Notes under the pieces: model-generated
Told to the model about the DNA's origin: nothing
The model's input: the letters and a program-made list of their open reading frames with translations, nothing else
Database searches by the model: none
Program-made: the position numbers and the translations under genes
Part shown: positions 3,843 through 37,840 of the stretch, piece after piece
How the letters are laid out: the number at the start of each line of letters is the position of its first letter
How positions within the stretch are numbered: the first letter of the stretch is position 1
Assembly: GCF_024700885.2 (NCBI RefSeq)
Contig: NZ_CP117016.1
Source: Escherichia coli
Lineage (GTDB): Bacteria; Pseudomonadota; Gammaproteobacteria; Enterobacterales; Enterobacteriaceae
DNA length: 64,000 nt
Direction: 5' to 3' (one strand)

Positions 3843-4475
3843 ATGGGGCTTTGTAGTCGTTATAAAAGTCTTACATGCAATAGTTGCTCAATGCATTGCC
3901 AAATAATGCCAGAAGAGTCACCGCGTTTGCAGTATTGCGCAAACTCGTGTTTTTGTATGTGGCCCGAAGAAAGTTCATATTTTAATCGTGGTGTGGTGGA
4001 AGGTATCTTAACAAAAAACCACAATGCGAGATTAAGCGGATATATTTTTGTCGATTTTTCAGTAAGTTTTTTACGTCTATTCCTTGAAAAAGACTGGATT
4101 GACTATCTTGCAAGTACTGACATGGGGATTGTTTTAGTCAGCGACCGAAATATGCAATCGTTAGCTAACTACTGGCGAAAACACAACTCTGCAATATCTG
4201 CTGTCATATATAATGATGATGGTCTTGATGTTGCCAATGAAAAGATCAGACAACTATTTATTGGTCGTTATTTATCATTTACCAGAGGGAACACATTAAC
4301 TCAGATGGAATTCACCATAATGGGATATATGGTTTCTGGTTATAATCCATATCAGATTGCTGAAGTTCTGGATATGGATATCCGTAGCATCTACGCGTAC
4401 AAGCAACGAATCGAAAAGAGAATGGGTGGTAAAATAAACGAGTTATTTATTCGTTCACATTCGGTCCAACATTGA
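3843..4475 (+). CDS. yqeH: LuxR-family transcriptional regulator (ETT2-island remnant)
   Basis: ORF-track ORF 3783..4475 begins at TTG; the ATG at 3843 (MGLCSRYKSL...) gives 210 aa; C-terminal helix-turn-helix region of LuxR/GerE type (NTLTQMEFTIMGYMVSGYNPYQIAEVLDMDIRSIYAYKQRIEKRM); AT-rich codon usage. Confidence 0.8.
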   Translation: MGLCSRYKSLTCNSCSMHCQIMPEESPRLQYCANSCFCMWPEESSYFNRGVVEGILTKNHNARLSGYIFVDFSVSFLRLFLEKDWIDYLASTDMGIVLVSDRNMQSLANYWRKHNSAISAVIYNDDGLDVANEKIRQLFIGRYLSFTRGNTLTQMEFTIMGYMVSGYNPYQIAEVLDMDIRSIYAYKQRIEKRMGGKINELFIRSHSVQH

Positions 4476-4508
4476 TACTCAATAATCTGCCAGAATCATA
4501 CTCTGCTT

Positions 4509-4540
4509 ATACGGGCATCTATTGAAATGCCCGTATTTTA
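4509..4540 (+). terminator. rho-independent terminator after yqeH
   Basis: 10-bp perfect stem ATACGGGCAT / ATGCCCGTAT with an 8-nt loop, followed by TTTTAC. Confidence 0.6.
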
Positions 4541-4688
4541 CAAATAAGCAGTACCCCCAAGAGTAAACAACATGGTATTTAAAACCATCACACGAAAAAT
4601 TCAGAAGCATTACGAAATATGAATTTACAAACAGGTGATGCTGCCAACTTACTGATTTAGTGTATGATGGTGTTTTTGAGGTGCTCCA

Positions 4689-4964
4689 GTGGCTTCTGTT
4701 TCTATCAGCTGTCCCTCCTGTTCAGCTACTGACGGGGTGGTGCGTAACGGCAAAAGCACCGCCGGACATCAGCGCTATCTCTGCTCTCACTGCCGTAAAA
4801 CATGGCAACTGCAGTTCACTTACACCGCTTCTCAACCCGGTACGCACCAGAAAATCATTGATATGGCCATGAATGGCGTTGGATGCCGGGCAACTGCCCG
4901 CATTATGGGCGTTGGCCTCAACACGATTTTACGTCACTTAAAAAACTCAGGCCGCAGTCGGTAA
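4689..4964 (+). CDS. insA: IS1 InsA (transposition repressor)
   Basis: 91-aa [40 protein letters not shown]... recognised as IS1 InsA; GTG start. Confidence 0.95.
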
Positions 4965-5386
4965 CCTCGCGCATACAGCCGGGCAGTGACGTCATCGTCT
5001 GCGCGGAAATGGACGAACAGTGGGGCTATGTCGGGGCTAAATCGCGCCAGCGCTGGCTGTTTTACGCGTATGACAGTCTCCGGAAGACGGTTGTTGCGCA
5101 CGTATTCGGTGAACGCACTATGGCGACGCTGGGGCGTCTTATGAGCCTGCTGTCACCCTTTGACGTGGTGATATGGATGACGGATGGCTGGCCGCTGTAT
5201 GAATCCCGCCTGAAGGGAAAGCTGCACGTAATCAGCAAGCGATATACGCAGCGAATTGAGCGGCATAACCTGAATCTGAGGCAGCACCTGGCACGGCTGG
5301 GACGGAAGTCGCTGTCGTTCTCAAAATCGGTGGAGCTGCATGACAAAGTCATCGGGCATTATCTGAACATAAAACACTATCAATAA
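4883..5386 (+). CDS. insB: IS1 InsB frame; the transposase InsAB' is made by a -1 frameshift at the TTAAAAAACTC motif near 4936-4946
   Basis: 167-aa ORF matching InsB; A6C slippery motif present in the insA/insB overlap. Confidence 0.9.
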
Positions 5387-5638
5387 GTTGGAGTCATTAC
5401 CCAGTCTGTCGATGACATTACAATGCCAGGATGGGCTTTATCTTCACGTTGTGCTATCGCGGTGTGAGAGGTGCAACTGCCGCCAACGTTAGGTTATACT
5501 GTCATCTCACCGTGTAACTTAACGTGACAGTTACTAAGGGCGGATCACAATGGTAGAACTCCTAAGCAAATTAAATAGGTAACTGTTTAAGTTGCTGACA
5601 GAGAAGACTTTTTTGGTCTTCTCCACCTGGGGAGATTC

Positions 5639-5712
5639 TGGAGCGGGCGAAGGGAATCGAACCCTCGTATAGAGCTTGGGAAGCTCTCGTTCTACCATTG
5701 AACTACGCCCGC
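5639..5712 (-). tRNA. glyU: tRNA-Gly (anticodon CCC)
   Basis: Reverse complement reads GCGGGCGTAGTTCAATGGTAGAACGAGAGCTTCCCAAGCTCTATACGAGGGTTCGATTCCCTTCGCCCGCTCCA with encoded CCA. Confidence 0.95.
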
Positions 5713-5790
5713 TTCGAGATGCGTAAGGCATTATAAACCTTACGCTCTCCTTAGCAAGTGCCGCGCTGCTGACTGCTGATTAATTCGCCA

Positions 5791-6567
5791 TCAGCATTTT
5801 GGCTTGCTGCTCTGAGGCGGCAAGTAACGCAGCGGATCAATTGCCGTAGCACGGTAACGAATCTGGAAATGCAGGCGAACCGATGCCGCATCAGTGCTCC
5901 CCATAGTGGCGATTTTTTGCCCAGCCTTCACGCTTTGCCCATTATTTACCAGCATCGTGTCATTATGGGCGTAAGCCGTAATGTAATCTTCACTGTGTTT
6001 AATCATGATGAGATTACCGTAGCCACGCAGCTGGTTGCCCACATACACCACCTTTCCTGCACCCGCGGCGTAAATAGGTGTACCTCGTGGAGCTGAGATA
6101 TCAATCCCTTTATTGCCGCCATCAGCTGTCGAATACGGCATGATAACTTTCCCTGTCGTTGGCCATAACCAACAACGTTGCCCTACTGGCGGCCAGGAAG
6201 ATTTCGGTACTGCTGATGACGGTGTAACCGATGCGGTTTTGGTCGTTGATTTGGCGGTTGATTTACGTGTACTGCTACTTTTCGCCCCACCCAGTTTTAG
6301 TTTCTGACCAACTTCAATGGTGTAAGGGGGGGAAATGCCGTTCAGTCGCGCCAGCTCTTTTACGCTGGTTCCCGTGGTGCGCGAAATACGATATAGCGTA
6401 TCCCCCCGTTTCACGGTGTAAACGGAGCCGGAATACGTTCCTGTATCGGATGATTTGCTACCCGAGCAGCCCGCCAAAAGCAGTCCAACCGATAACAACA
6501 TCACGATACCCAGAGATTTTTTATTCAGGCGTCCCGCACTCAAAATCTTTCCTCGCTTAAAAAACAA
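5791..6567 (-). CDS. ygeR: LysM-domain / M23-family peptidase lipoprotein
   Basis: 258-aa ORF; lipobox LLLAGCSG; LysM motif (YTVKRGDTLYRISRTTGTSVKELARLNGI); M23 peptidase-like C-terminus. Confidence 0.85.
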   Translation of the reverse strand: MFFKRGKILSAGRLNKKSLGIVMLLSVGLLLAGCSGSKSSDTGTYSGSVYTVKRGDTLYRISRTTGTSVKELARLNGISPPYTIEVGQKLKLGGAKSSSTRKSTAKSTTKTASVTPSSAVPKSSWPPVGQRCWLWPTTGKVIMPYSTADGGNKGIDISAPRGTPIYAAGAGKVVYVGNQLRGYGNLIMIKHSEDYITAYAHNDTMLVNNGQSVKAGQKIATMGSTDAASVRLHFQIRYRATAIDPLRYLPPQSSKPKC

Positions 6568-6887
6568 GACGCCATATCATAGCAGCCAGCCTCTGGATAC
6601 CCAATCTCTTGCTTCTCGAAAAACGCGGTAATAGAGAAAGAGGTTAATTTCATTTGGCAAAGGGAAGTATCATCAGCAAAATATTCGCTGCAGAGGTATC
6701 GAATTTCCTGACTTTTTTACCCTATTTCCCATCCTGATGCGTAATAATCCTGATTTATCACATTGATTTTATCGCCACTCATATTGATACGTATCACTGC
6801 CCCTATTCAGAGTCCTGTTTCGTATCATATCTGTGTTTTTTTAACGTCATCACACTTCCTTCCTCCCCTAACGCTTATCGTCGTTTC

Positions 6888-6902
6888 TGGCGTAAATCTT
6901 GC
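6888..6902 (+). promoter_or_regulatory. candidate sigma54 (-24/-12) promoter for xdhA: TGGCGTAAATCTTGC
   Basis: GG and GC spaced as in the TGGCAC-N5-TTGC consensus; about 96 bp upstream of the xdhA start. Confidence 0.4.
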
Positions 6903-6997
6903 CTGCTTAGACTAAATCTTTGCCATAAGAACCAAATGTTCAAATCGAGGGGATTTCTATGGAAGCGCGGGAAGCAACCGCTACGGGTGAATCTTGC

Positions 6998-9266: not shown

Positions 9267-10145
9267 ATGTTTGATTTTGCTTCTTACCATCGCGCAGCAA
9301 CCCTTGCCGATGCCATCAACCTGCTGGCTGACAACCCACAGGCCAAACTGCTCGCCGGTGGCACTGACGTACTGATTCAGCTCCACCATCACAATGACCG
9401 TTATCGCCATATTGTTGATATTCATAATCTGGCGGAGCTGCGGGGAATTACGCTAGCGGAAGATGGCTCACTACGTATCGGCTCTGCAACGACATTTACC
9501 CAGCTCATTGAAGATCCTGTAACTCAACGTCATCTCCCAGCGTTATGTGCTGCGGCCTCGTCCATTGCCGGACCGCAGATCCGTAACGTCGCTACCTACG
9601 GTGGAAATATTTGCAACGGTGCTACCAGTGCAGATTCTGCCACGCCAACGCTAATTTATGACGCGAAACTGGAGATTCACTCCCCGCGCGGTGTTCGTTT
9701 CGTCCCGATTAATGGCTTTCACACTGGGCCGGGCAAAGTGTCTCTTGAGCATGACGAAATCCTTGTCGCCTTTCATTTTCCGCCCCAGCCGAAAGAACAC
9801 GCGGGCAGCGCGCATTTTAAATATGCCATGCGCGACGCAATGGATATTTCAACGATTGGCTGCGCCGCACATTGCCGACTGGATAACGGCAATTTCAGCG
9901 AATTACGCCTGGCATTTGGTGTTGCCGCGCCAACGCCAATTCGCTGCCAACATGCCGAACAGACTGCACAAAATGCGCCATTAAACCTGCAAACACTGGA
10001 AGCCATCAGCGAATCAGTCCTGCAAGATGTCGCCCCGCGTTCTTCATGGCGGGCCAGTAAAGAGTTTCGTCTGCATCTCATCCAGACGATGACCAAAAAA
10101 GTGATTAGCGAAGCCGTCGCCGCGGCGGGGGGAAAATTGCAATGA
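9267..10145 (+). CDS. xdhB: xanthine dehydrogenase, FAD-binding subunit
   Basis: 292-aa ORF of the CO-dehydrogenase flavoprotein family; immediately downstream of xdhA. Confidence 0.9.
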
Positions 10146-10621
10146 ATCACAGCGAAACAATCACCATCGAATGCACCATTAACGGGATGCCTTTTCAGCT
10201 TCACGCCGCACCAGGCACGCCGCTCTCGGAATTACTCCGCGAACAAGGACTGCTAAGTGTCAAACAAGGGTGCTGCGTGGGTGAATGTGGTGCCTGTACG
10301 GTGCTGGTCGACGGCACAGCAATAGACAGTTGCTTATACCTTGCCGCCTGGGCTGAAGGAAAAGAGATCCGCACGCTGGAAGGTGAAGCGAAAGGCGGAA
10401 AACTTTCTCATGTACAGCAGGCTTATGCTAAATCCGGCGCAGTGCAGTGCGGGTTTTGTACGCCTGGCCTGATTATGGCTACCACAGCAATGCTGGCGAA
10501 ACCACGCGAGAAGCCATTAACCATTACGGAAATTCGTCGCGGACTGGCGGGAAATCTTTGTCGCTGCACGGGGTATCAGATGATTGTAAATACAGTTCTG
10601 GATTGCGAGAAAACGAAGTAA
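10142..10621 (+). CDS. xdhC: xanthine dehydrogenase, 2Fe-2S subunit
   Basis: 159-aa ORF with Cys clusters [11 protein letters not shown] and CGFCTPG; ATGA overlap with the xdhB stop. Confidence 0.9.
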
Positions 10622-10626
10622 AAGGA

Positions 10627-10650
10627 TATCCGGCCTGAATTCAGGCCGGA
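10627..10650. terminator. bidirectional terminator-like perfect palindrome between convergent xdhC and ygeV
   Basis: ATCCGGCCTGAATTCAGGCCGGAT is a perfect 24-bp palindrome. Confidence 0.5.
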
Positions 10651-10660
10651 TTCACTGAGG

Positions 10661-12439
10661 TTATGTGTTTAACAACTCATATTTCTTAATCTTGCGATAG
10701 AGCGTAGCAATGCCGATGCCCAGTTCATCAGCAACTTGCTTCTTGCTGTTATGACGTGAAAGCGCCTCGCGGATCATTTGCTTTTCCATCTCCTCCAGCG
10801 CCGTGCCGCCCGCATCATCGAGTGCCAGGTGCGCCTCGTTGACCTCTGTTACATCACTTTGCTCCGTTGTGCCATTATTCAGCAGATTTGGCGGCAATAG
10901 CGTGCTGTCGATAACTTCACCTGAAGGAACCACGTTAACCAGATATTCCATCAAATTGCTTAACTCGCGCAGGTTTCCGGGCCAACGATGCTTACGCAAT
11001 ATTTCGACGACATCGGGAGCAATGCCCGGATAAACCGATCCCAGACGACGGGTATGCAGATGTAAAAAGTAATGCACCAGTAGTTCAATATCTTCCTGAC
11101 GTTCACGCAGCGGTGGCAGAGTTATCGGGATAACATTAAGTCGGTAGAAGAGATCTTCGCGGAATTTACCTTCGGCAATGAACTGGGCCAAATTCTGGTT
11201 AGTTGCAGAAATGATGCGAATGTCGACTTGTATTGGGCTACTGGCACCAATCGGCAGAATTTCACGCGCCTCAATAGCGCGCAGTAATTTAGCCTGCAAC
11301 ATTAATGGCATATCACCTATTTCATCGAGAAACAGCGTGCCCGTATTCGCCGCCTGAATCAACCCTGTTTTACCGTTGGCAGAAGCGCCAGTAAATGCGC
11401 CTTTAACATAACCGAACAGTTCGCTCTCCAGAAGCTGCTCCGGAATCGCGGCACAGTTGATAGCAATAAAGGGTTTATTCCGTCTTCCGCTCAACTTATG
11501 GATTGCACGGGCGACAACTTCTTTACCCGTGCCGCTTTCACCAACCACCATAACGCTGGATGGGCTGGGTGCAATACGGCTAATGAGTCGTTTTAATTGC
11601 CGCATAACACGGCACTCGCCAACCAATTGTTCAATATGCGGTTCATCAGGTGCATTTGCTACAGAAAAACTGGTATGCGATTGGTGAAACGCCATTAAAA
11701 ATAATTGTCGGCCCTGAATGTTATGCAATTGACCAATGATTAATTCACTTTTATCGTCCCACGAAACAATATGCTGCATATGTCCATGGGTAAAATTACT
11801 CTCAAATGTTAATGGTCTGAAACGGATAGGTTTCCCAATAATATTATTTTGTACAACACCAAGTGTTTTTAAGGCAGTCTGATTAACAAACTGAATCCGA
11901 TTATCGTCATCAACAACTAATACACCCTGATCCATATTATCGATCATGGTCGCGAATATTTTACTGATGTTATCTCCTGGTCCCTGATCCTCCAGAAGTT
12001 TCGAAACAAAAATGGTGGATATATGGCGAACGTAATCAGAAAATTCGCGTAAATTATCACTAATATGCTCTTGTTGCTCGTGGGTAACGGCAATCAAACT
12101 TATCACCCCAACACAACGATCCTGTAAAATGACAGGCGTACCCAGAAATGCTTTTTCGCGGCAATTTTCTTTACTATCGCAACCTTCGCAAAGGGGATCG
12201 AAGCGAGACTGTGTCACAACTTTTTCAGTTTTCGTTTCCAGGACGTGGCGGAGCAGGCGTGAGTTGCCGCTCAACTGGCGACCAAGAAACTTCCCATACG
12301 CGCCCGTTCCGGCGACGCGACACAAGTTTTCATCAACGATCTCAACCTCAAGCTGCAAAACGCTGGCAAGCATTCTGGCAAAACGCTGAATTGTCGGTTG
12401 AATTTGCATCAATACTGACTGCGTAGTAGCAAGCTCCAT
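10661..12439 (-). CDS. ygeV: sigma54-dependent transcriptional activator (bacterial enhancer-binding protein)
   Basis: 592-aa ORF with AAA+ Walker A GESGTGKE, the sigma54-contact motif GAFTGA, and a C-terminal helix-turn-helix. Confidence 0.9.
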   Translation of the reverse strand: MELATTQSVLMQIQPTIQRFARMLASVLQLEVEIVDENLCRVAGTGAYGKFLGRQLSGNSRLLRHVLETKTEKVVTQSRFDPLCEGCDSKENCREKAFLGTPVILQDRCVGVISLIAVTHEQQEHISDNLREFSDYVRHISTIFVSKLLEDQGPGDNISKIFATMIDNMDQGVLVVDDDNRIQFVNQTALKTLGVVQNNIIGKPIRFRPLTFESNFTHGHMQHIVSWDDKSELIIGQLHNIQGRQLFLMAFHQSHTSFSVANAPDEPHIEQLVGECRVMRQLKRLISRIAPSPSSVMVVGESGTGKEVVARAIHKLSGRRNKPFIAINCAAIPEQLLESELFGYVKGAFTGASANGKTGLIQAANTGTLFLDEIGDMPLMLQAKLLRAIEAREILPIGASSPIQVDIRIISATNQNLAQFIAEGKFREDLFYRLNVIPITLPPLRERQEDIELLVHYFLHLHTRRLGSVYPGIAPDVVEILRKHRWPGNLRELSNLMEYLVNVVPSGEVIDSTLLPPNLLNNGTTEQSDVTEVNEAHLALDDAGGTALEEMEKQMIREALSRHNSKKQVADELGIGIATLYRKIKKYELLNT

Positions 12440-12749
12440 AGCTTTACCTTCCAGACTTACTTAAAAGTCGATCATTGAAGACGTTGATGGTTCACAGATC
12501 ATGATGATATTAACTCAGGCGAAATTGGCTTTGATAAAAACATAAGATTTTTATCACTTTCTAATGAAATTATGGAAGAGATATCACATTTCTATATCAA
12601 TATGAGAATTACGGCGGTGAGTTTATCAAACTGAAGAGAGAGCGCCTGTTCCTTTATCTTATTTCTGATACTTAGCAGCAAATAAATAACGCGATAAAAA
12701 AAGCCAAACGTTTTCGTATTTTACAAACAACCAGAAGCTGGCATCAATT

Positions 12750-12765
12750 TGTGATCAACCCCACA
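12750..12765. promoter_or_regulatory. CRP-like site TGTGATCAACCCCACA upstream of ygeW
   Basis: TGTGA-N6-CCACA, 9 of 10 matches to the CRP half-sites TGTGA-N6-TCACA. Confidence 0.35.
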
Positions 12766-12808
12766 CATTACCCGTCAAATTAGTCTTTTGCAGCCGCTTG
12801 GATAATTC

Positions 12809-12823
12809 TGGCATAGTTATTGT
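12809..12823 (+). promoter_or_regulatory. candidate sigma54 -24/-12 element TGGCATAGTTATTGT upstream of ygeW
   Basis: GG at -24 spacing and TTGT in place of TTGC; about 90 bp upstream of the ygeW start. Confidence 0.3.
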
Positions 12824-12915
12824 TAGTCCCAGGTATAGCTGTGAAAAGACCAATCACTTTTGGCAAGTCACAGTGAAATAAACCTCTTTGCCTGTCATTC
12901 CACTACCGGGACTTT

Positions 12916-14106
12916 ATGATGAAAACTGTTAATGAGCTGATTAAGGATATCAATTCGCTGACCTCTCACCTTCACGAGAAAGATTTTTTGTTAACGTGGG
13001 AACAGACGCCAGATGAACTGAAACAAGTACTGGACGTTGCCGCAGCATTAAAAGCACTGCGTGCTGAAAACATCTCAACCAAAGTCTTTAATAGTGGATT
13101 AGGTATTTCCGTATTCCGCGACAACTCCACCCGTACCCGTTTCTCTTATGCTTCCGCGCTTAACCTGCTCGGCCTTGCACAGCAAGATCTCGACGAAGGC
13201 AAATCACAAATCGCTCACGGCGAAACCGTGCGTGAAACCGCCAATATGATCTCCTTCTGCGCCGATGCCATCGGTATTCGTGACGATATGTATCTGGGCG
13301 CAGGCAACGCCTATATGCGTGAAGTTGGCGCTGCACTTGATGACGGTTACAAGCAGGGTGTGCTGCCGCAACGTCCGGCTTTAGTGAACCTGCAATGCGA
13401 TATTGACCACCCGACTCAGTCAATGGCTGACCTGGCATGGTTACGTGAACACTTTGGTTCACTGGAAAACCTGAAAGGTAAAAAAATCGCCATGACCTGG
13501 GCCTACTCCCCAAGCTATGGCAAACCGCTCTCTGTACCACAAGGCATCATCGGTCTGATGACTCGCTTCGGTATGGATGTCACCCTGGCCCATCCGGAAG
13601 GCTACGACCTGATCCCGGATGTCGTTGAAGTCGCTAAAAACAATGCTAAAGCCTCCGGCGGTAGCTTCCGTCAGGTCACCAGCATGGAAGAAGCCTTCAA
13701 AGACGCAGACATCGTTTATCCGAAGTCATGGGCACCTTACAAAGTGATGGAAGAGCGTACTGAATTGCTGCGTGCGAACGATCACGAAGGCTTAAAAGCA
13801 CTGGAAAAACAGTGTCTGGCACAGAACGCGCAACACAAAGACTGGCATTGTACTGAAGAGATGATGGAACTGACCCGTGATGGCGAAGCCCTGTACATGC
13901 ACTGCCTGCCAGCTGATATCAGCGGCGTATCCTGCAAAGAAGGTGAAGTGACTGAAGGCGTATTCGAAAAATACCGTATCGCGACCTACAAAGAAGCCAG
14001 CTGGAAGCCTTATATCATCGCCGCGATGATCCTGTCCCGCAAATACGCCAAACCAGGTGCACTGCTCGAGCAACTGCTGAAAGAAGCGCAAGAACGCGTG
14101 AAATAA
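12916..14106 (+). CDS. ygeW: carbamoyltransferase (ornithine/aspartate transcarbamylase superfamily)
   Basis: 396-aa ORF with the carbamoyl-phosphate-binding STRTR motif and HCLP motif. Confidence 0.85.
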   Translation: MMKTVNELIKDINSLTSHLHEKDFLLTWEQTPDELKQVLDVAAALKALRAENISTKVFNSGLGISVFRDNSTRTRFSYASALNLLGLAQQDLDEGKSQIAHGETVRETANMISFCADAIGIRDDMYLGAGNAYMREVGAALDDGYKQGVLPQRPALVNLQCDIDHPTQSMADLAWLREHFGSLENLKGKKIAMTWAYSPSYGKPLSVPQGIIGLMTRFGMDVTLAHPEGYDLIPDVVEVAKNNAKASGGSFRQVTSMEEAFKDADIVYPKSWAPYKVMEERTELLRANDHEGLKALEKQCLAQNAQHKDWHCTEEMMELTRDGEALYMHCLPADISGVSCKEGEVTEGVFEKYRIATYKEASWKPYIIAAMILSRKYAKPGALLEQLLKEAQERVK

Positions 14107-14163: not shown

Positions 14164-15360
14164 ATGTCCGTTTTCTCATTGAAGATTGATATCGCCGATA
14201 ACAAATTTTTCAACGGCGAAACATCACCGCTCTTTTCGCAAAGCCAGGCCAAACTGGCGCGCCAGTTCCACCAGAAAATTGCTGGTTATCGCCCAACACC
14301 GCTTTGTGCGCTGGACGATCTCGCAAACCTTTTTGGTGTGAAGAAAATTCTCGTCAAAGACGAATCAAAACGATTCGGTCTGAACGCCTTCAAAATGCTC
14401 GGCGGTGCGTACGCCATCGCTCAATTATTGTGTGAAAAATATCATCTTGATATCGAAACGCTGTCATTTGAGCATCTGAAAAATGCCATCGGCGAAAAAA
14501 TGACCTTCGCGACCACCACCGACGGCAACCACGGGCGCGGTGTGGCATGGGCAGCACAGCAACTCGGACAGAATGCGGTGATTTACATGCCGAAAGGTTC
14601 TGCTCAGGAACGCGTTGACGCCATTCTGAACCTCGGTGCCGAGTGCATCGTCACGGATATGAACTATGACGATACCGTTCGCCTGACCATGCAACACGCG
14701 CAGCAGCACGGCTGGGAAGTGGTGCAAGATACCGCCTGGGAAGGTTACACCAAAATCCCAACCTGGATCATGCAGGGCTATGCAACACTGGCAGATGAAG
14801 CCGTCGAGCAAATGCGTGAAATGGGCGTAACCCCGACGCACGTTCTGCTGCAAGCTGGTGTCGGTGCAATGGCCGGTGGTGTGCTGGGTTATCTGGTCGA
14901 CGTCTATAGCCCGCAAAATCTGCACAGCATTATTGTTGAACCTGACAAAGCTGACTGTATTTATCGCTCCGGCGTCAAAGGCGACATCGTCAACGTTGGC
15001 GGTGATATGGCCACCATCATGGCGGGCCTGGCCTGCGGCGAACCTAACCCGCTGGGCTGGGAAATCCTACGTAACTGCGCCACCCAATTCATCTCCTGCC
15101 AGGACAGTGTTGCCGCATTAGGTATGCGTGTGCTGGGTAATCCGTACGGCAATGACCCGCGCATCATCTCCGGTGAATCCGGCGCTGTCGGTTTGGGCGT
15201 TCTCGCAGCGGTTCATTATCACCCGCAACGTCAAAGCCTGATGGAAAAACTGGCGCTGAACAAAGATGCCGTAGTGCTGGTTATCAGCACTGAAGGCGAC
15301 ACAGACGTGAAGCACTACCGCGAAGTTGTCTGGGAAGGCAAACACGCTGTAGCACCTTAA
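14164..15360 (+). CDS. ygeX: PLP-dependent diaminopropionate ammonia-lyase
   Basis: 398-aa ORF; position after ygeW matches K-12 order; family assignment (Trp-synthase beta / serine dehydratase fold) is from memory of this gene, no specific motif checked. Confidence 0.85.
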   Translation: MSVFSLKIDIADNKFFNGETSPLFSQSQAKLARQFHQKIAGYRPTPLCALDDLANLFGVKKILVKDESKRFGLNAFKMLGGAYAIAQLLCEKYHLDIETLSFEHLKNAIGEKMTFATTTDGNHGRGVAWAAQQLGQNAVIYMPKGSAQERVDAILNLGAECIVTDMNYDDTVRLTMQHAQQHGWEVVQDTAWEGYTKIPTWIMQGYATLADEAVEQMREMGVTPTHVLLQAGVGAMAGGVLGYLVDVYSPQNLHSIIVEPDKADCIYRSGVKGDIVNVGGDMATIMAGLACGEPNPLGWEILRNCATQFISCQDSVAALGMRVLGNPYGNDPRIISGESGAVGLGVLAAVHYHPQRQSLMEKLALNKDAVVLVISTEGDTDVKHYREVVWEGKHAVAP

Positions 15361-15417: not shown

Positions 15418-16629
15418 ATGGCTAAGAATATTCCATTCAAACTGATTCTTGAAAAAGCAAAAGATTACCAGGCGGACATGACTCGCTTCCTGCGCGACAT
15501 GGTTGCTATTCCCAGTGAAAGCTGCGACGAAAAACGCGTAGTACATCGTATTAAAGAAGAGATGGAAAAAGTCGGCTTCGATAAAGTTGAAATCGACCCG
15601 ATGGGCAACGTTCTCGGTTATATCGGCCACGGCCCGCGTCTGGTGGCAATGGACGCTCATATTGATACCGTCGGCATTGGCAACATCAAAAACTGGGACT
15701 TCGATCCGTACGAAGGCATGGAAACTGATGAGCTGATCGGTGGTCGCGGTACTTCCGACCAGGAAGGCGGCATGGCATCTATGGTTTATGCCGGTAAAAT
15801 CATTAAAGACCTCGGTCTGGAAGATGAATATACCCTGCTGGTTACCGGTACTGTGCAGGAAGAAGACTGCGACGGTCTGTGCTGGCAGTACATTATTGAA
15901 CAATCCGGCATTCGCCCGGAATTTGTGGTCAGTACCGAACCAACCGACTGCCAGGTATACCGTGGTCAGCGCGGTCGTATGGAAATTCGTATTGATGTTC
16001 AGGGTGTTAGCTGCCACGGTTCTGCGCCAGAACGCGGTGACAACGCCATTTTCAAAATGGGTCCGATTCTTGGCGAATTACAAGAACTCTCCCAACGTCT
16101 GGGTTATGACGAATTCCTCGGCAAAGGCACCCTCACCGTTTCTGAAATCTTCTTCACATCCCCAAGCCGTTGCGCTGTAGCAGATAGCTGCGCCGTCTCT
16201 ATTGACCGCCGTCTGACCTGGGGCGAAACCTGGGAAGGCGCGCTGGACGAAATCCGCGCCCTGCCTGCAGTACAGAAAGCTAACGCGGTTGTTTCTATGT
16301 ACAACTACGACCGTCCGTCCTGGACTGGCCTGGTTTACCCAACCGAATGCTACTTCCCGACCTGGAAAGTGGAAGAAGATCACTTCACCGTTAAAGCACT
16401 GGTGAATGCCTACGAAGGTCTGTTTGGCAAAGCGCCGGTTGTTGATAAGTGGACCTTCTCAACTAACGGCGTATCTATCATGGGCCGTCACGGCATTCCG
16501 GTGATCGGCTTTGGCCCAGGTAAAGAACCTGAAGCGCATGCACCTAACGAAAAAACCTGGAAATCTCACCTGGTGACCTGTGCCGCGATGTACGCGGCAA
16601 TCCCGTTAAGCTGGCTGGCAACCGAATAA
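15418..16629 (+). CDS. ygeY: M20-family metallopeptidase / amidohydrolase
   Basis: 403-aa ORF; position between ygeX and hyuA matches K-12 order; M20 (ArgE/DapE) family assignment is from memory, no specific motif checked. Confidence 0.85.
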
Positions 16630-20760: not shown

Positions 20761-21531
20761 CTAATTCACAAATCTGCGCGCGATTGCAGGATGTTCTTGT
20801 ATATCGCCCAGCCAGATTGCCTCTACGTCGTGTTGTTGCAGCGGTTGAAGGAGCTCGCTTTGTGCAATCGCATTCTCACATTGAGAAAAACGGTTAATGA
20901 ACCAGACTCGCCGACAACCTTGCGGTACGTTTTTAAATGCGCCCTGAGGGTGGCGAACCAGCGCAACGAGATCGCTCAGTTGCAAGGTTGCATCAGGTGT
21001 TAACCCGGTAATATCAGCAAACTGCGACCAGCGATGGACATTTTCTGTGCTCACTTTCGCGCCCAAAATATGTCCTCCCATCACAGCAATCACGCAGCAA
21101 CTGCTTTTGGGTATGCAAGGTTCGTGCTCATCAGGCGCTTTTAACGTCATTCCACGCGAGCCATCTGCCTCAATGAGAATTACGTCACACTCTGGTCGTT
21201 GCACCAGTGCATCAATCGCTTCTGGCGTAAATCCCTGCACTTTTCCCTGGTTCGCTTTCCAGCTGTGAAAACAAAATGAAATGGGGGATGTAAGAGACGC
21301 ATGAGGAAGCATGGCGGGATCACGACAGAAAACCACGGGCCAGTGAGACGTTGGCATAAACATATGTGTCGTCGTAGTGATTAACACACGCCTGCCGCTA
21401 GCCTGGAGCAGTTCTGCCAGCCAAAAAAGCAAGCTGGTTTTCCCCCCAGCCCCAACAACAGAAATCACAGTGGGACGTTTCTGCGCGCCTAAATCAATGA
21501 ATAATGCCGATGGGTCAACTATACTTTTCAC
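20761..21531 (-). CDS. yqeC: selenium-dependent molybdenum hydroxylase system protein (YqeC family)
   Basis: 256-aa ORF with P-loop-like VVGAGGKTS; synteny. Confidence 0.75.
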   Translation of the reverse strand: MKSIVDPSALFIDLGAQKRPTVISVVGAGGKTSLLFWLAELLQASGRRVLITTTTHMFMPTSHWPVVFCRDPAMLPHASLTSPISFCFHSWKANQGKVQGFTPEAIDALVQRPECDVILIEADGSRGMTLKAPDEHEPCIPKSSCCVIAVMGGHILGAKVSTENVHRWSQFADITGLTPDATLQLSDLVALVRHPQGAFKNVPQGCRRVWFINRFSQCENAIAQSELLQPLQQHDVEAIWLGDIQEHPAIARRFVN

Positions 21532-22212: not shown

Positions 22213-22366
22213 AAAATGTAGTTAAACGATTGCGTTCAAATATTTAATCCCTCCAGCACTCTTTATCATAATGATAAGGAATCACTGATTTTGAGAAAAG
22301 AGAAAAAGTGATAAATGGGCTGGCAATAATAATTTTCAGGAGTGATTTTAATTCTCATTTGGCACC

Positions 22367-22382
22367 TGTGAGTTCATTCACA
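22367..22382. promoter_or_regulatory. CRP binding site TGTGAGTTCATTCACA upstream of ygfK
   Basis: Perfect match to both CRP consensus half-sites TGTGA-N6-TCACA. Confidence 0.55.
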
Positions 22383-22436: not shown

Positions 22437-22452
22437 TGGCAAGAGTGGTGCG
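22437..22452 (+). promoter_or_regulatory. candidate sigma54 -24/-12 element TGGCAAGAGTGGTGCG upstream of ygfK
   Basis: GG-N10-GC spacing correct; about 80 bp upstream of the ygfK start. Confidence 0.3.
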
Positions 22453-22533
22453 ATTGTTGCTCTATCCCCCTAAACCACCGGATTTCTCAACACCGGTCAC
22501 TCAATGATATCTGTATAAGCTAAGGAGAGGGTT

Positions 22534-32239: not shown

Positions 32240-33559
32240 ATGATGTCAGGAGAACACACGTTAAAAGCGGTACGAGGCAGTTTTATTGATGTCACCCGTA
32301 CAGTCGATAACCCAGAGGAGATTGCCTCTGCGCTGCGGTTTATTGAGGATGGTTTATTACTCATTAAACAGGGAAAAGTGGAATGGTTTGGCGAATGGGA
32401 AGACGGAAAGCATCAAATTCCTGACACTATTCGCGTGCGCGACTATCGCGGCAAACTGATAGTACCGGGCTTTGTCGATACACATATCCATTATCCGCAA
32501 AGTGAAATGGTGGGGGCCTATGGTGAACAATTGCTGGAGTGGTTGAATAAACACACCTTCCCTACTGAACGTCGTTATGAGGATTTAGAGTACGCCCGCG
32601 AAATGTCGGCGTTCTTCATCAAGCAGCTTTTACGTAACGGAACCACCACGGCTCTGGTGTTTGGCACTGTTCATCCGCAATCCGTTGATGCGCTGTTTGA
32701 AGCCGCCAGCCATATCAATATGCGTATGATTGCCGGTAAGGTGATGATGGACCGCAACGCACCGGATTATCTGCTCGACACTGCCGAAAGCAGCTATCAC
32801 CAAAGCAAAGAGCTGATCGAACGCTGGCACAAAAATGGTCGTCTGTTGTATGCGATTACGCCACGCTTCGCCCCTACCTCATCTCCTGAACAGATGGCGA
32901 TGGCGAAACGCCTGAAAGAAGAATATCCGGATACGTGGGTACATACCCATCTCTGTGAAAACAAAGATGAAATTGCCTGGGTGAAAGAACTTTATCCTGA
33001 CCATGATGGCTATCTGGATGTTTACCATCAGTACGGCCTGACCGGTAAAAACTGTGTCTTTGCTCACTGCGTCCATCTCGAAGAAAAAGAGTGGGATCGT
33101 CTCAGCGAAACCAAATCCAGCATTGCTTTCTGTCCGACCTCCAACCTTTACCTCGGCAGCGGCTTATTCAACTTGAAAAAAGCATGGCAGAAGAAAGTTA
33201 AAGTGGGCATGGGAACGGATATCGGTGCCGGAACAACTTTCAACATGCTGCAAACGCTGAACGAAGCCTACAAAGTATTGCAATTACAAGGCTATCGCCT
33301 CTCGGCATATGAAGCGTTTTACCTGGCCACGCTCGGCGGAGCGAAATCTCTGGGCCTTGACGATTTAATTGGCAACTTTTTACCTGGCAAAGAGGCTGAT
33401 TTCGTGGTGATGGAACCCACCGCCACTCCGCTACAGCAGCTGCGCTATGACAACTCTGTTTCTTTAGTCGACAAATTGTTCGTGATGATGACGTTGGGCG
33501 ATGACCGTTCGATCTACCGCACCTACGTTGATGGTCGTCTGGTGTACGAACGCAACTAA
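32240..33559 (+). CDS. guaD: guanine deaminase
   Basis: 439 aa from the ATG at 32240 (MMSGEHTLKAV...); amidohydrolase HIHYPQ motif; AAGGAG Shine-Dalgarno. Confidence 0.85.
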   Translation: MMSGEHTLKAVRGSFIDVTRTVDNPEEIASALRFIEDGLLLIKQGKVEWFGEWEDGKHQIPDTIRVRDYRGKLIVPGFVDTHIHYPQSEMVGAYGEQLLEWLNKHTFPTERRYEDLEYAREMSAFFIKQLLRNGTTTALVFGTVHPQSVDALFEAASHINMRMIAGKVMMDRNAPDYLLDTAESSYHQSKELIERWHKNGRLLYAITPRFAPTSSPEQMAMAKRLKEEYPDTWVHTHLCENKDEIAWVKELYPDHDGYLDVYHQYGLTGKNCVFAHCVHLEEKEWDRLSETKSSIAFCPTSNLYLGSGLFNLKKAWQKKVKVGMGTDIGAGTTFNMLQTLNEAYKVLQLQGYRLSAYEAFYLATLGGAKSLGLDDLIGNFLPGKEADFVVMEPTATPLQQLRYDNSVSLVDKLFVMMTLGDDRSIYRTYVDGRLVYERN

Positions 33560-37405: not shown

Positions 37406-37756
37406 TTGCATCCCTTTCATTTAATGAGTTATGTCTTCTCAAATTTCGCGATGCAATAAATGGGCATATATTAGGTAGCATGGCCGATTTAATTATAATT
37501 TTGCGACTGAGTTCAAATTATTGCCCCTCAATCTGTGCCGCTTTCATTATTTCAACATTGCCGACCAAAAGAGATCTAACCAGATAAAAACGATTAAATA
37601 CGAGAGTGCGACATGCCAGAATGATTAATGAAATATCAATATGAGAAAATTACAGATAATTCCATTGTCAGGTTCTCTTCTCATTTTCGTGGTTTAACCA
37701 CGATTATGTGATTGCCTCCGCAATTCCTGTCTCTAACTCCCCTTCCTCGCAAAAAC

Positions 37757-37771
37757 TGGCACTCCACGAGC
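37757..37771 (+). promoter_or_regulatory. candidate sigma54 -24/-12 element TGGCACTCCACGAGC upstream of uacT
   Basis: Perfect TGGCAC at -24 and GC at the -12 position; about 70 bp upstream of the uacT start. Confidence 0.35.
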
Positions 37772-37840
37772 ATGTGTTTAGACAGTTTCATTAACGTAAA
37801 CGGTTGCTTTTTACTCTGGCGAGCGAAAGGAGAAACACTG

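Follow-up and report, generated by a model that had tools for sequence, protein, structure and literature searches.

We conclude that ygeV most likely switches on the genes for anaerobic uric-acid/purine breakdown in Escherichia coli. Its product is probably the enterobacterial orthologue of DioR, that is, a GAF-PAS-AAA+-HTH activator whose dedicated target is the gene cluster for anaerobic uric-acid/purine (2,8-dioxopurine) degradation, and we regard the mechanism proposed below as probable to the same degree. The analysis covered a 64-kb stretch of E. coli contig NZ_CP117016.1, referred to here as the window. That YgeV, a protein already named, is a sigma-54 activator is largely known from earlier work; the present analysis adds that its sensor is composed of GAF and PAS and not of a receiver domain, and describes a three-cysteine motif that has been unstudied so far. 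Genetic dependence and induction of the cluster by urate were published by others: as cited in later papers, Iwadate & Kato (2019) connected ygeV with the consumption of urate under anaerobic conditions, a ygeV mutant having lower ygfT expression and lower urate consumption, and ygfK and ygfT are strongly induced by urate. A YgeV iModulon covers the cluster, and YgeV was renamed IsrR after indole-induced ygeV transcription (Kumar, 2022). With these reports and the available sigma-54 ChIP-seq data, the initial annotation, which had left signal, ligand and target operons unassigned, is out of date for signal and targets; for the ligand it stands, as none of the papers found demonstrates binding of YgeV to a ligand or to DNA.

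The ygeV reading frame is 100% identical in sequence to its counterpart in E. coli SMS-3-5 (NC_010498.1), and the ygeV region occurs in 5285 of 5426 complete genomes of the species. As initially annotated, YgeV is an enhancer-binding protein. It has Walker A (GESGTGKE, residues 300-307), a GAFTGA contact loop (347-352), Walker B (DE at 372-373) and a C-terminal HTH; Pfam assigns Sigma54_activat (PF00158) to residues 272-439 (E = 7.6e-71), AAA_lid_14 to 445-528 and HTH_8 to 548-587 (E = 1.4e-13). Because the AAA+ module begins at residue 272, the sensory region comprises residues 1 to about 270, in agreement with the long N-terminal region of about 280 aa noticed before. The spacer to the divergent ygeW measures 476 bp to the first ygeW ATG (12916), the distance given earlier, and 479 bp with the RefSeq ygeW start (12919). 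Chance origin of the reading frame, motifs, domains and spacer is excluded. All features are listed in Table 1.

Table 1. Features of ygeV and of the promoter regions of the purine cluster in the window.
Feature	Coordinates	Strand	Description
ygeV coding sequence	10661..12439	-	ORF, 592 aa; 100% identical to annotated ygeV
GAF domain, residues 1-150	11990..12439	-	AF2 model pLDDT 85.5; profile matches of relatives; structural matches
Cys triad C84-x2-C87-x5-C93, then E95	12161..12190	-	loop between strands 73-75 and 97-105
PAS domain, residues 158-254	11678..11968	-	PAS_8 E = 8e-8; PAS E = 3.5e-6; AF2 model
Sigma-54 AAA+ module, residues 272-528	10856..11626	-	Pfam; Walker A 11519-11542, GAFTGA 11384-11401
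Fis-type HTH DNA-binding domain, residues 548-587	10679..10798	-	HTH_8
xdhA UAS, two repeats	6753..6792		TATCACATTGAT at 6756 (+), TATCAATATGAG at 6778-6789 (-)
xdhA CRP-like half-site ..ATCACA	6839..6854		centre about -67.5; ATCACA invariant in 11 genera
xdhA sigma-54 promoter TGGCGTAAATCTTGCC	6888..6903	+	invariant (11 genera); ChIP-seq OS29
UAS-like block ACAGATCATGATGATATTA, weaker	12494..12512		55-75 bp upstream of ygeV ATG; ATGATA.TAAC conserved; PWM 13.3 bits
ygeV-ygeW UAS1 CTATATCAATATGAGAATT	12592..12610	+	centre about -234 from predicted ygeW start site
ygeV-ygeW UAS2 TTTATCAAACTGAAG	12622..12636	+	half-site TTATCA invariant in 23 genera
ygeV-ygeW CRP-like site TGTGATCAACCCCACA	12750..12765		centre about -77.5; GTGA..N..TC.CA kept in 23 genera
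ygeW sigma-54 promoter TGGCATAGTTATTGTT	12809..12824	+	unusual TTGT at -12; ChIP-seq OS30; genomic SELEX
UAS-type palindrome TTTTCTCAATGTGAGAATG, yqeC 3' end	20871..20889	-	PWM 18.5 bits; about 220 bp downstream of PyqeC, about 165 bp upstream of yqeB ATG
Intragenic sigma-54 promoter in yqeC, drives yqeB	21114..21130	-	scan; validated IS34 / PyqeC; motif kept in 15 genera
ygfK UAS, perfect palindrome CTTTATCATAATGATAAGG	22261..22279		centre about -202; invariant in 8 genera; PWM 20.2 bits
ygfK second invariant block AGTGATTTTAATTCTCAT	22341..22358		includes TGAGAATTA half-site on minus strand
ygfK perfect CRP core TGTGAGTTCATTCACA	22367..22382		centre about -97.5; kept in 6/8 genera
ygfK sigma-54 promoter TGGTGCGATTGTTGCT	22446..22461	+	invariant (8 genera); ChIP-seq OS31
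ygfT sigma-54 site TATGCCCATTTATTGCA, weak	37451..37467	-	ChIP-seq OS32, low motif score
ygfT-uacT UAS AAATATCAATATGAGAAAA	37631..37649	+	about -143 from uacT, about -201 from ygfT
uacT sigma-54 promoter TGGCACTCCACGAGCA, candidate	37757..37772	+	consensus and PWM scans; Pluralibacter likeness

A domain search of the N-terminus for GAF and PAS, as had been suggested before, found both. Among 39 relatives, GAF_2 was detected in 28 and SpoVT_C in 26, the structural matches of the N-terminal model include the GAF domains of DhaR(N), SpoVT and fRMsr, and the profile matches of the second region include the PAS domains of DhaR, WalK, DcuS and CitA. Response_reg was absent from the best 25 of the 29 YgeV Pfam matches (all with E up to 0.074). 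YgeV was described as an orphan two-component response regulator (Kumar, 2022), which is at odds with these matches and with an N-terminus that folds as GAF and PAS.

The best solved-structure match is DhaR, the activator of the E. coli dihydroxyacetone kinase operon, in which a GAF-like and a PAS domain are likewise followed by AAA+ and HTH. DhaR works with sigma-70, lacks a functional GAFTGA loop (intact in YgeV) and senses protein partners. The GAF-PAS region of YgeV might similarly need no small molecule and instead sense a pathway enzyme's state through contact between the two proteins, like E. coli DhaR with its partners DhaK and DhaL. Among the meaningful structural matches, DhaR(N) indeed ranks first (4lrx/4lry/4lrz, E about 1e-9 to 1e-10; 4lrx E = 3.6e-10), DhaR is the best PDB profile match (E = 1.7e-8), and the NCBIfam DhaR model is the only one whose alignment extends into the sensor region (it covers residues 97-589). 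However, the likeness does not go beyond the fold (13-14% identity, TM about 0.3), and such contact would leave unexplained the YgeV-family-specific cysteine triad, which DhaR lacks. No candidate partner is evident, and induction of the target genes by exogenous urate equally fits a metabolite signal; we consider contact sensing improbable.

The three cysteines C84, C87 and C93 (Cx2Cx5C) are invariant across 71 diverse relatives at 26-52% identity. The triad was found in 84 of 88 full-length representatives, 62 of these 84 also having E95, and is kept even in distant relatives adjoining non-purine operons; in the AF2 model the block has a pLDDT of 93-97. A GAF fold with a conserved group of residues of metal-ligand type is what GAF metal/Fe-S sensors have, and in YgeV the triad suggests a metal or Fe-S site. 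In the enhancer-binding proteins VnfA/AnfA, NorR and PexR, an N-terminal GAF domain with conserved Cys/His/Asp ligands for an Fe-S cluster, non-heme iron or Zn/Fe gates the AAA+ module. The Cys motif of VnfA lies at the extreme N-terminus, whereas that of YgeV lies in the loop 76-96 with other spacing, and YgeV has an extra PAS domain. Potentially, the triad is itself the actual sensor (Fe-S or metal), and YgeV is chiefly an oxygen/redox switch that confines the pathway to anaerobiosis, with purine induction coming from elsewhere. The invariance of the motif, also near non-purine operons, the metal/Fe-S GAF domains of VnfA and PexR and the reported anaerobic or microaerobic nature of the urate pathway are consistent with this, but a three-Cys site could be a structural zinc site, and we judge a pure redox switch possible though somewhat unlikely. 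It is also tempting to speculate that, throughout the YgeV/DioR family, the invariant Cx2Cx5C(xE) GAF loop holds a redox-active metal or an Fe-S cluster. Its members would then be dual-input activators (anaerobiosis plus a purine-derived ligand), and the module would be reused by hundreds of relatives governing other anaerobic amino-acid/purine fermentations in gut Firmicutes. We offer this proposal tentatively and think it on the whole unlikely; if true, the Cys-loop GAF would represent a class of Fe-S/metal sensors that is widespread but has gone unrecognised, and would offer a starting point for engineering probiotics that degrade urate.

To locate sigma-54 promoters, scans by motif were of little use: the bare consensus (TGGCAC-N5-TTGCW, 2 mismatches allowed) matched the window at chance level (45 matches, 44 expected), and the 41 matches of an approximate sigma-54 PWM were scattered in coding DNA. 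Since both scans were uninformative, promoters were judged by conservation and published ChIP-seq. At xdhA, ygeW and ygfK, the upstream matches show no variation in 8-23 genera and coincide with ChIP-seq sites, which confirms the earlier placing of ygeV among candidate sigma-54 promoters. ChIP-seq from 2015 detected sigma-54 binding at xdhA, ygeW, ygfK and ygfT and within yqeC (yqeB promoter), and 5 of the 135 genome-wide sites in published ChIP-seq fall in about 31 kb of the cluster; in genomic SELEX, the ygeV/ygeW spacer was selected by RpoN holoenzyme. The ygeW promoter core TGGCA-N4-TATTGTTA is invariant in 23 genera. At ygfK, a candidate at 22437-22452 was rejected, as it is not conserved and overlaps the real site. 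The uacT promoter, also named in the initial annotation, is absent from the sigma-54 ChIP-seq table and stays a candidate; Pluralibacter gergoviae has a similar TGGCACCGGATAAGCA at comparable distance. PyqeC (IS34) was experimentally validated as yqeB promoter. In the stretch from the palindrome inside yqeC to the ATG of yqeB no GG-N10-GC was found, the validated promoter being located further upstream. A sigma-70 scan of the ygeV-ygeW spacer for ygeV's own promoter was at chance level, and none was assigned.

The PyqeC-yqeB transcript rises in nitrogen limitation, so another activator may also act on the cluster, and the YgeV iModulon is nearly always silent under laboratory conditions. Both observations would be expected if the sigma-54 promoters were driven mainly by another activator, e.g., NtrC under nitrogen limitation, with YgeV minor or cryptic. 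Conserved activator-adjacent synteny and a dedicated repeat are, however, typical of a pathway-specific activator, and ygfT expression depends on ygeV, and we hold a leading role of NtrC to be very improbable. The YgeV iModulon peaks in ethanol-treated baeR/cpxR knockouts and not in any purine condition; ethanol as the YgeV signal, suggested by this pattern, was not adopted, as it has no support in the sequence.

The sigma-54 promoters of xdhA, ygeW, ygfK and uacT/ygfT are preceded, at a distance of 120-235 bp, by an inverted repeat, TTATCA-N3-TGA(T/G)AA, which is kept in up to 23 genera. With the invariant GG-N10-GC/GT of the nearby -24/-12 promoters at xdhA, ygeW and ygfK, this is the arrangement expected of an enhancer-binding protein and its targets. 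The 12-mer TATCAATATGAG is common to three unrelated spacers, and a search with TATCANNNTGAKA returned 4 distinct sites, where 0.18 matches were expected. A PWM trained solely on orthologous sites from non-E. coli genomes gave its three highest scores in the window to ygeW, ygfT/uacT and ygfK, with 12 matches of at least 13 bits compared to 1.2 in shuffles. UAS1 of the ygeV-ygeW spacer is the top match (26.6 bits), and its T.TCA...TGA.AA is invariant in 23 genera; the xdhA repeats (centres about -152 and -132; 17.2 and 16.6 bits) have invariant columns in 11 genera. UAS1 has 9-mers in common with the second ygfK block and the 15-mer ATATCAATATGAGAA with the ygfT-uacT UAS, and Pluralibacter has a comparable pair of repeat sites upstream of uacT. 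The block upstream of ygeV could serve autoregulation or belong to a ygeV sigma-70 promoter. In the yqeC palindrome, the arms are kept in 15 genera and the central 3 bp are variable. Repeat sites within yqeC, ygeX and guaD lie in coding DNA, where conservation is confounded by protein constraint. Loci of distant homologues in Buttiauxella selenatireducens and a Clostridiaceae bacterium have the same repeat next to sigma-54 promoters; in the Endozoicomonas locus it is located upstream of ygfK, where a strong promoter match was not found. The repeat is rich in AT, and the spacers it should explain are also those in which it was first seen.

Between repeat and sigma-54 promoter, CRP-like sites are found at ygeW, xdhA and ygfK. 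A Crp site in the ygeV-ygeW spacer was mentioned in published work, and glucose repression was reported. Another CRP-like site near PyqeC (21174-21189) was dropped, as its conservation ends at Escherichia/Citrobacter.

The YgeV family was gathered by exhaustive HMMER search; a word-indexed search with the N-terminus gave mostly fragments. ygeV is divergent from ygeW in 39 of 41 enterobacterial loci, the other two ending before ygeW, and homologues at 32-39% N-terminal identity sit within ygeW/ygeX/ygeY/amidohydrolase/carbamate-kinase/xdh/ygfK/yqeBC clusters, so that the gene context is conserved across phyla. DioR is a sigma-54 enhancer-binding protein of Clostridiales known from computational prediction only, with its function listed as 'Unknown' (Nie et al., 2019; PMC6615313), and was still termed uncharacterised in 2024. 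It is associated with the same gene set, namely dpaL, ygeW-ygfK-ssnA-ygeY, yqeB, yqeC-ygfJ-yqeB-xdhC, xdhABC and pbuX (PMC6615313), and ygeV likewise adjoins ygeW/dpaL/ygeY/xdh/ygfK/yqeB-type genes. The predicted DioR site, TTATCA-N3-TGATAA (in C. difficile TTCTCA-N3-TGAGAA), is located 175-390 bp from the gene start and upstream of a sigma-54 promoter; the candidate sites of this type in E. coli likewise lie upstream of sigma-54 promoters. The E. coli repeat is identical to DioR sites predicted in Clostridia, e.g., ATTTATCATAATGATAAGG, and 18 of the 19 positions of the ygfK UAS agree with a DioR site of C. botulinum. A Clostridiaceae homologue (P0073), compared in place of the named DioR proteins CBO2889 and CD2092, is 38% identical over its full length and has domains, neighbours and repeat as in YgeV. 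In contrast to DioR promoters, those of E. coli add CRP-like sites and, at ygeW, the TTGT element at -12. Since repeat and gene context are shared, YgeV is best read as the enterobacterial DioR orthologue; we found no paper that equates the two.

Alternatively, YgeV might mainly be IsrR, an indole-responsive regulator that tunes the LEE virulence genes of attaching-effacing pathogens, which lie outside the purine cluster, and its location in this cluster would be incidental. ygeV is among the genes most raised by indole in EHEC, and the IsrR study connects it with both indole and LEE. Its data, however, comprise ygeV transcription and downstream phenotypes and showed neither indole binding nor LEE promoter binding, and the protein it calls an orphan response regulator has no receiver domain. 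Moreover, ygeV stays with ygeW and purine genes in nearly all of 41 non-pathogen genomes and also in Endozoicomonas and Clostridiaceae, and the strongest repeat matches of the window are located in promoter regions of the cluster. Indole, a bicyclic heteroaromatic, could simply compete at a purine-type pocket. A main role as virulence regulator thus appears unlikely to us.

As the DioR orthologue, YgeV would bind the inverted repeats by its Fis-type HTH. These would serve xdhABC, ygeW-ygeX-ygeY-hyuA-arcC, ygfK-ssnA-ygfM-xdhD and the divergent ygfT/uacT, and one adjoins the yqeC-internal yqeB promoter. The signal at GAF-PAS, most likely urate or a pathway intermediate, would cause the AAA+ ring to open sigma-54 closed complexes using ATP and the GAFTGA loop. 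The CRP-like site between repeat and promoter probably serves to bend the DNA, and expression would then depend on carbon limitation; the invariant Cx2Cx5C may impose a further requirement, for a metal or a redox state (anaerobiosis). PrpR and prpBCDE provide a precedent: prpBCDE is a catabolic sigma-54 operon with an additional requirement for CRP, and the ligand of its divergent activator is 2-methylcitrate. A divergent pathway-specific activator and CRP control are common to both systems, whereas YgeV differs in its sensor domain and ligand and would control five or six promoters instead of one.

The genes around ygeV form the gut-bacterial pathway of uric acid removal, which is relevant to gout and hyperuricaemia. 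A urate-degrading E. coli Nissle was built by replacing the ygeV-ygeW promoter region, and E. coli strains with near-identical enzymes differ in their urate consumption rates and consume urate in some media only. The native switch would consist of YgeV sites, sigma-54 promoters, CRP sites, a ligand and possibly redox-sensitive cysteines, and knowing it would explain such strain and medium differences and allow rational engineering. If YgeV is DioR, results from E. coli would also hold for further gut anaerobes such as C. difficile and C. sporogenes.

The initial annotation described ygeV as the gene of an enhancer-binding protein with GESGTGKE and GAFTGA motifs, separated from the divergent ygeW by 476 bp, and this was exact. 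The 592-aa ORF annotated as ygeV (10661-12439, -) carries the two motifs at residues 300-307 and 347-352, and the spacer measures 476 bp, or 479 bp if counted to the RefSeq ygeW start. Window positions 10000-14000 are 100% identical to E. coli SMS-3-5 (NC_010498.1), where the window corresponds to 3072328-3136327, and of 5426 complete E. coli genomes, 5285 carry the ygeV region. An IS1A copy is directly flanked by yqeH and tRNA-Gly/actS (window ~3843-6543), at a position where K-12 carries ETT2 remnant genes (yqeI...ygeQ); from this comparison, the strain seems to have lost the ETT2 island at the IS1 junction. ygeV lies within a 33-kb block of catabolic genes (xdhABC; ygeW-dpaL(ygeX)-ygeY-hyuA-arcC(yqeA); yqeB, yqeC; mocA; ygfK-ssnA-ygfM-xdhD; xanQ-guaD-ghxQ; ygfS-ygfT; uacT), which recent work assigns to the anaerobic uric-acid/2,8-dioxopurine degradation pathway of gut bacteria.

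That YgeV has no assigned signal and no established targets holds only at the biochemical level, because ChIP-seq, SELEX, urate, mutant and iModulon reports exist. In K-12, sigma-54 ChIP-seq sites were reported at xdhA (CTGGCGTAAATCTTGCC), ygeW (CTGGCACACTTATTGTT), ygfK (GTGGTGCGATTGTTGCT) and, weakly, ygfT; with yqeC, the cluster holds 5 of 135 sites genome-wide. The promoter inside yqeC, required for making YqeB, was validated by mutation in the same study, and the ygeV/ygeW spacer was selected by RpoN holoenzyme in genomic SELEX. Urate strongly induces ygfK and ygfT, and in the work reporting this the phenotype appears to be suppressed by glucose. The best-supported model is that of a pathway-specific sigma-54 activator with CRP help and a urate-type signal. 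YgeV would bind the predicted operator TTATCA-N3-TGA(T/G)AA, assisted by CRP, and would be activated by urate or a pathway intermediate via its GAF-PAS sensor. We regard this regulon and operator as very probable, and a urate-type ligand as an even call. A less likely rival signal is indole: Kumar et al. renamed YgeV IsrR on the grounds of indole-induced ygeV transcription and lower LEE expression in a tnaA isrR mutant, data that concern transcription and LEE expression. Control of the cluster's promoters by NtrC is a further, unlikely rival. PRECISE-1K contains a 'YgeV iModulon' consisting mostly of ygeV cluster genes. As cited by others, Iwadate & Kato (2019) implicated ygeV in anaerobic urate consumption and observed reduced ygfT expression when ygeV was mutated.

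The location of ygeV among candidate sigma-54 promoters was borne out by the published ChIP-seq sites and by alignment of the xdhA, ygeW and ygfK promoters. Among 41 orthologous loci with 62-96% N-terminal identity (Escherichia, Citrobacter, Klebsiella, Atlantibacter, Yokenella, Trabulsiella, Cedecea, Raoultella, Kluyvera, Pluralibacter, Serratia, Buttiauxella and others), 39 have ygeV and ygeW in divergent orientation, and the remaining two end before ygeW. The ygeV-ygeW spacer was aligned across 23 genera, the xdhA upstream region across 11 and that of ygfK across eight. The non-consensus -12 element of the ygeW promoter, TTGT, is invariant across the 23 genera, and the spacer contains two more blocks near the ygeV start. 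Within this promoter, the spacer varies between strains (TGGCATAGTTATTGTT here versus TGGCACACTTATTGTT in K-12; 12809-12824). Upstream of xdhA, the sigma-54 promoter and an ATCACA half-site are conserved in the 11 genera. The xdhA ORF as called here (765 aa) apparently begins ~13 codons before the start used in K-12 (6959-6997), because the ChIP-seq table gives 84 nt from promoter to xdhA versus ~45 nt here; the true start is probably the second Met (MRVD...). The ygfT-uacT spacer and UAS1, the first repeat upstream of ygeW, have the 15-mer ATATCAATATGAGAA in common, and in Pluralibacter a similar site pair, a CRP-like site and TGGCACCGGATAAGCA precede uacT. A repeat PWM trained on non-E. coli sites only ranked the ygeW, ygfT/uacT and ygfK sites highest in the 64-kb window, with 12 matches of at least 13 bits versus 1.2 in shuffles. 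CRP-like centres are spaced by multiples of ~10 bp between promoters. Downstream of the sigma-54 promoters, the 5' leaders of ygeW (12826-12915; e.g. CACAGCAATCATTAAGCC.GTCATTCAC) and ygfK (22462-22533; e.g. CCG.CGG...ACCGG) hold blocks kept across genera, which may be leader-level regulatory elements.

Features of YgeV and of the cluster's regulatory regions (centres calculated from coordinates, relative to predicted start sites)
Feature	Position	Basis
YgeV Sigma54_activat	residues 272-439	Pfam, E = 7.6e-71
YgeV AAA lid	residues 445-528	Pfam
YgeV Fis-type HTH	residues 548-587	Pfam
ygeW sigma-54 promoter TGGCA-N4-TATTGTTA	12809-12825	conserved, 23 genera
ygeV-ygeW spacer, CRP-like TGTGA-N6-CCACA	12750-12765	23 genera
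ygeV-ygeW spacer, UAS1 T.TCA...TGA.AA	12595-12608	23 genera
ygeV-ygeW spacer, second TTATCA	12623-12628	23 genera
xdhA, two TATCA-N3-TGA copies, opposite orientation	6756 and 6778-6789	11 genera
ygfK palindrome TTATCATAATGATA	22263	8 genera
ygfK second block	22341-22358	8 genera
ygfK perfect CRP core	22367-22382	conserved in 6 of 8 genera
ygfK promoter	22446-22461	8 genera
Candidate repeat in ygeX/dpaL coding sequence	14437-14455	PWM, 15.1 bits
Candidate repeat in guaD coding sequence	32710-32728	PWM, 14.6 bits
Candidate repeat in ygeY coding sequence	15652-15670	PWM, 12.5 bits
xdhA predicted repeat centres; CRP-like centre	-152 and -132; -67.5	
ygeW predicted repeat centres; CRP-like centre	-234 and -205; -77.5	
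ygfK predicted repeat centres; CRP-like centre	-202 and -122; -97.5	
uacT predicted repeat centre; CRP-like centre	-143; -68.5	
ygfT predicted repeat centre	-201	

A domain search of the N-terminal region had been proposed, and it points to GAF plus PAS. For YgeV alone, Pfam placed the PAS start at 162-205 and left GAF below threshold. An exhaustive HMMER search matched residues 1-272 to 909 representative proteins, mostly 560-605-aa activators aligned over residues 8-240 with 23-40% identity; among 39 relatives, GAF_2 was found in 28, SpoVT_C (a GAF relative) in 26 and PAS in 19. An AlphaFold model from the relatives' alignment (mean pLDDT 85.5) comprises GAF 1-150, a linker helix and PAS 158-254. 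Single-domain structure matches include SpoVT and the GAF domains of free-methionine-sulfoxide reductase and PtsP. The closest meaningful solved structure is the GAF-PAS sensor of E. coli DhaR, and a less likely rival reading is that the YgeV sensor, DhaR-like, reads a protein partner rather than a small molecule. The 25 best of 29 Pfam matches, the model and the structure matches revealed no receiver domain in the N-terminus; thus, 'orphan response regulator' is a misnomer. Several database clusters (P0029, P0031-P0033, P0035; one with 344 members) hold 428-aa forms that start at M165 and lack the GAF domain. Such forms could reflect miscalled starts or a natural loss of the N-terminus, and in the latter case the proteins might be constitutively active.

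The only invariant N-terminal columns among 71 full-length relatives (26-52% identity) are C84, C87, C93 and G111. Of 88 full-length representatives, 84 carry the Cx2Cx5C motif, usually followed by x-E; it maps to a loop that joins strands 73-75 and 97-105 and is modelled with confidence. Since distant triad-bearing members adjoin other PALP/M20/transporter operons, the triad is a feature of the family and not purine-specific. On a low-GC Firmicute contig (L049, 2699-6187), two tandem YgeV-family activator genes lie beside a PALP (dpaL-like) gene. Enhancer-binding proteins with a metal GAF domain include NorR. Metal or Fe-S GAF domains are likewise described for VnfA and PexR, and by analogy with these precedents the triad is a probable metal or Fe-S site. 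It may be structural, or YgeV activation may depend on it for a redox or metal input; a role as redox or Fe-S sensor is rather unlikely.

The TTATCA-type repeat also accompanies sigma-54 promoters at the loci of two distant homologues, one from Buttiauxella selenatireducens and one from a Clostridiaceae bacterium; in the latter, TATCAAAATGAGA lies ~180-195 bp upstream of TGGCACTGGTTTTGCT, ahead of dpaL. In an Endozoicomonas locus it is found upstream of ygfK, where a scan of the locus gave no strong sigma-54 promoter match. In a Clostridiales comparison, the activator DioR was predicted, its function given as 'Unknown', with a regulon of dpaL-pyrC, ygeW-ygfK-ssnA-ygeY, yqeB, xdhABC and pbuX and sites including ATTTATCATAATGATAAGG, TATTATCATTTTGATAATA and ATTCTCGAATTGAGAATA (Nie et al., 2019; PMC6615313); in 2024 it was still termed uncharacterised. 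This regulon overlaps the ygeV cluster (ygeW, dpaL, ygfK, ssnA, ygeY, yqeB, xdhABC), and the E. coli ygfK site CTTTATCATAATGATAAGG is identical to ATTTATCATAATGATAAGG at 18 of 19 positions. From the common repeat, the regulon overlap and this site match, we conclude at the sequence level that YgeV and DioR would form one regulator family with a conserved operator, an equation not found stated in the literature examined. A palindrome of this type, TTCTCA-N3-TGAGAA, lies within the 3' end of yqeC (20871-20889, -), its arms conserved in 15 genera and its central 3 bp variable. It is ~220 bp downstream of the yqeC-internal promoter (21114-21130), with the yqeB ATG a further ~165 bp on, and may be a downstream enhancer. 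In C. difficile, a DioR site lies upstream of yqeB. In summary, the ygeV finding is real, yet ordinary to a specialist: a named gene of known kind, for which the literature already describes the promoters, an outline of the regulon and the physiological inducer. What this analysis usefully adds is the predicted operator that YgeV shares with DioR, along with the invariance of Cx2Cx5C.
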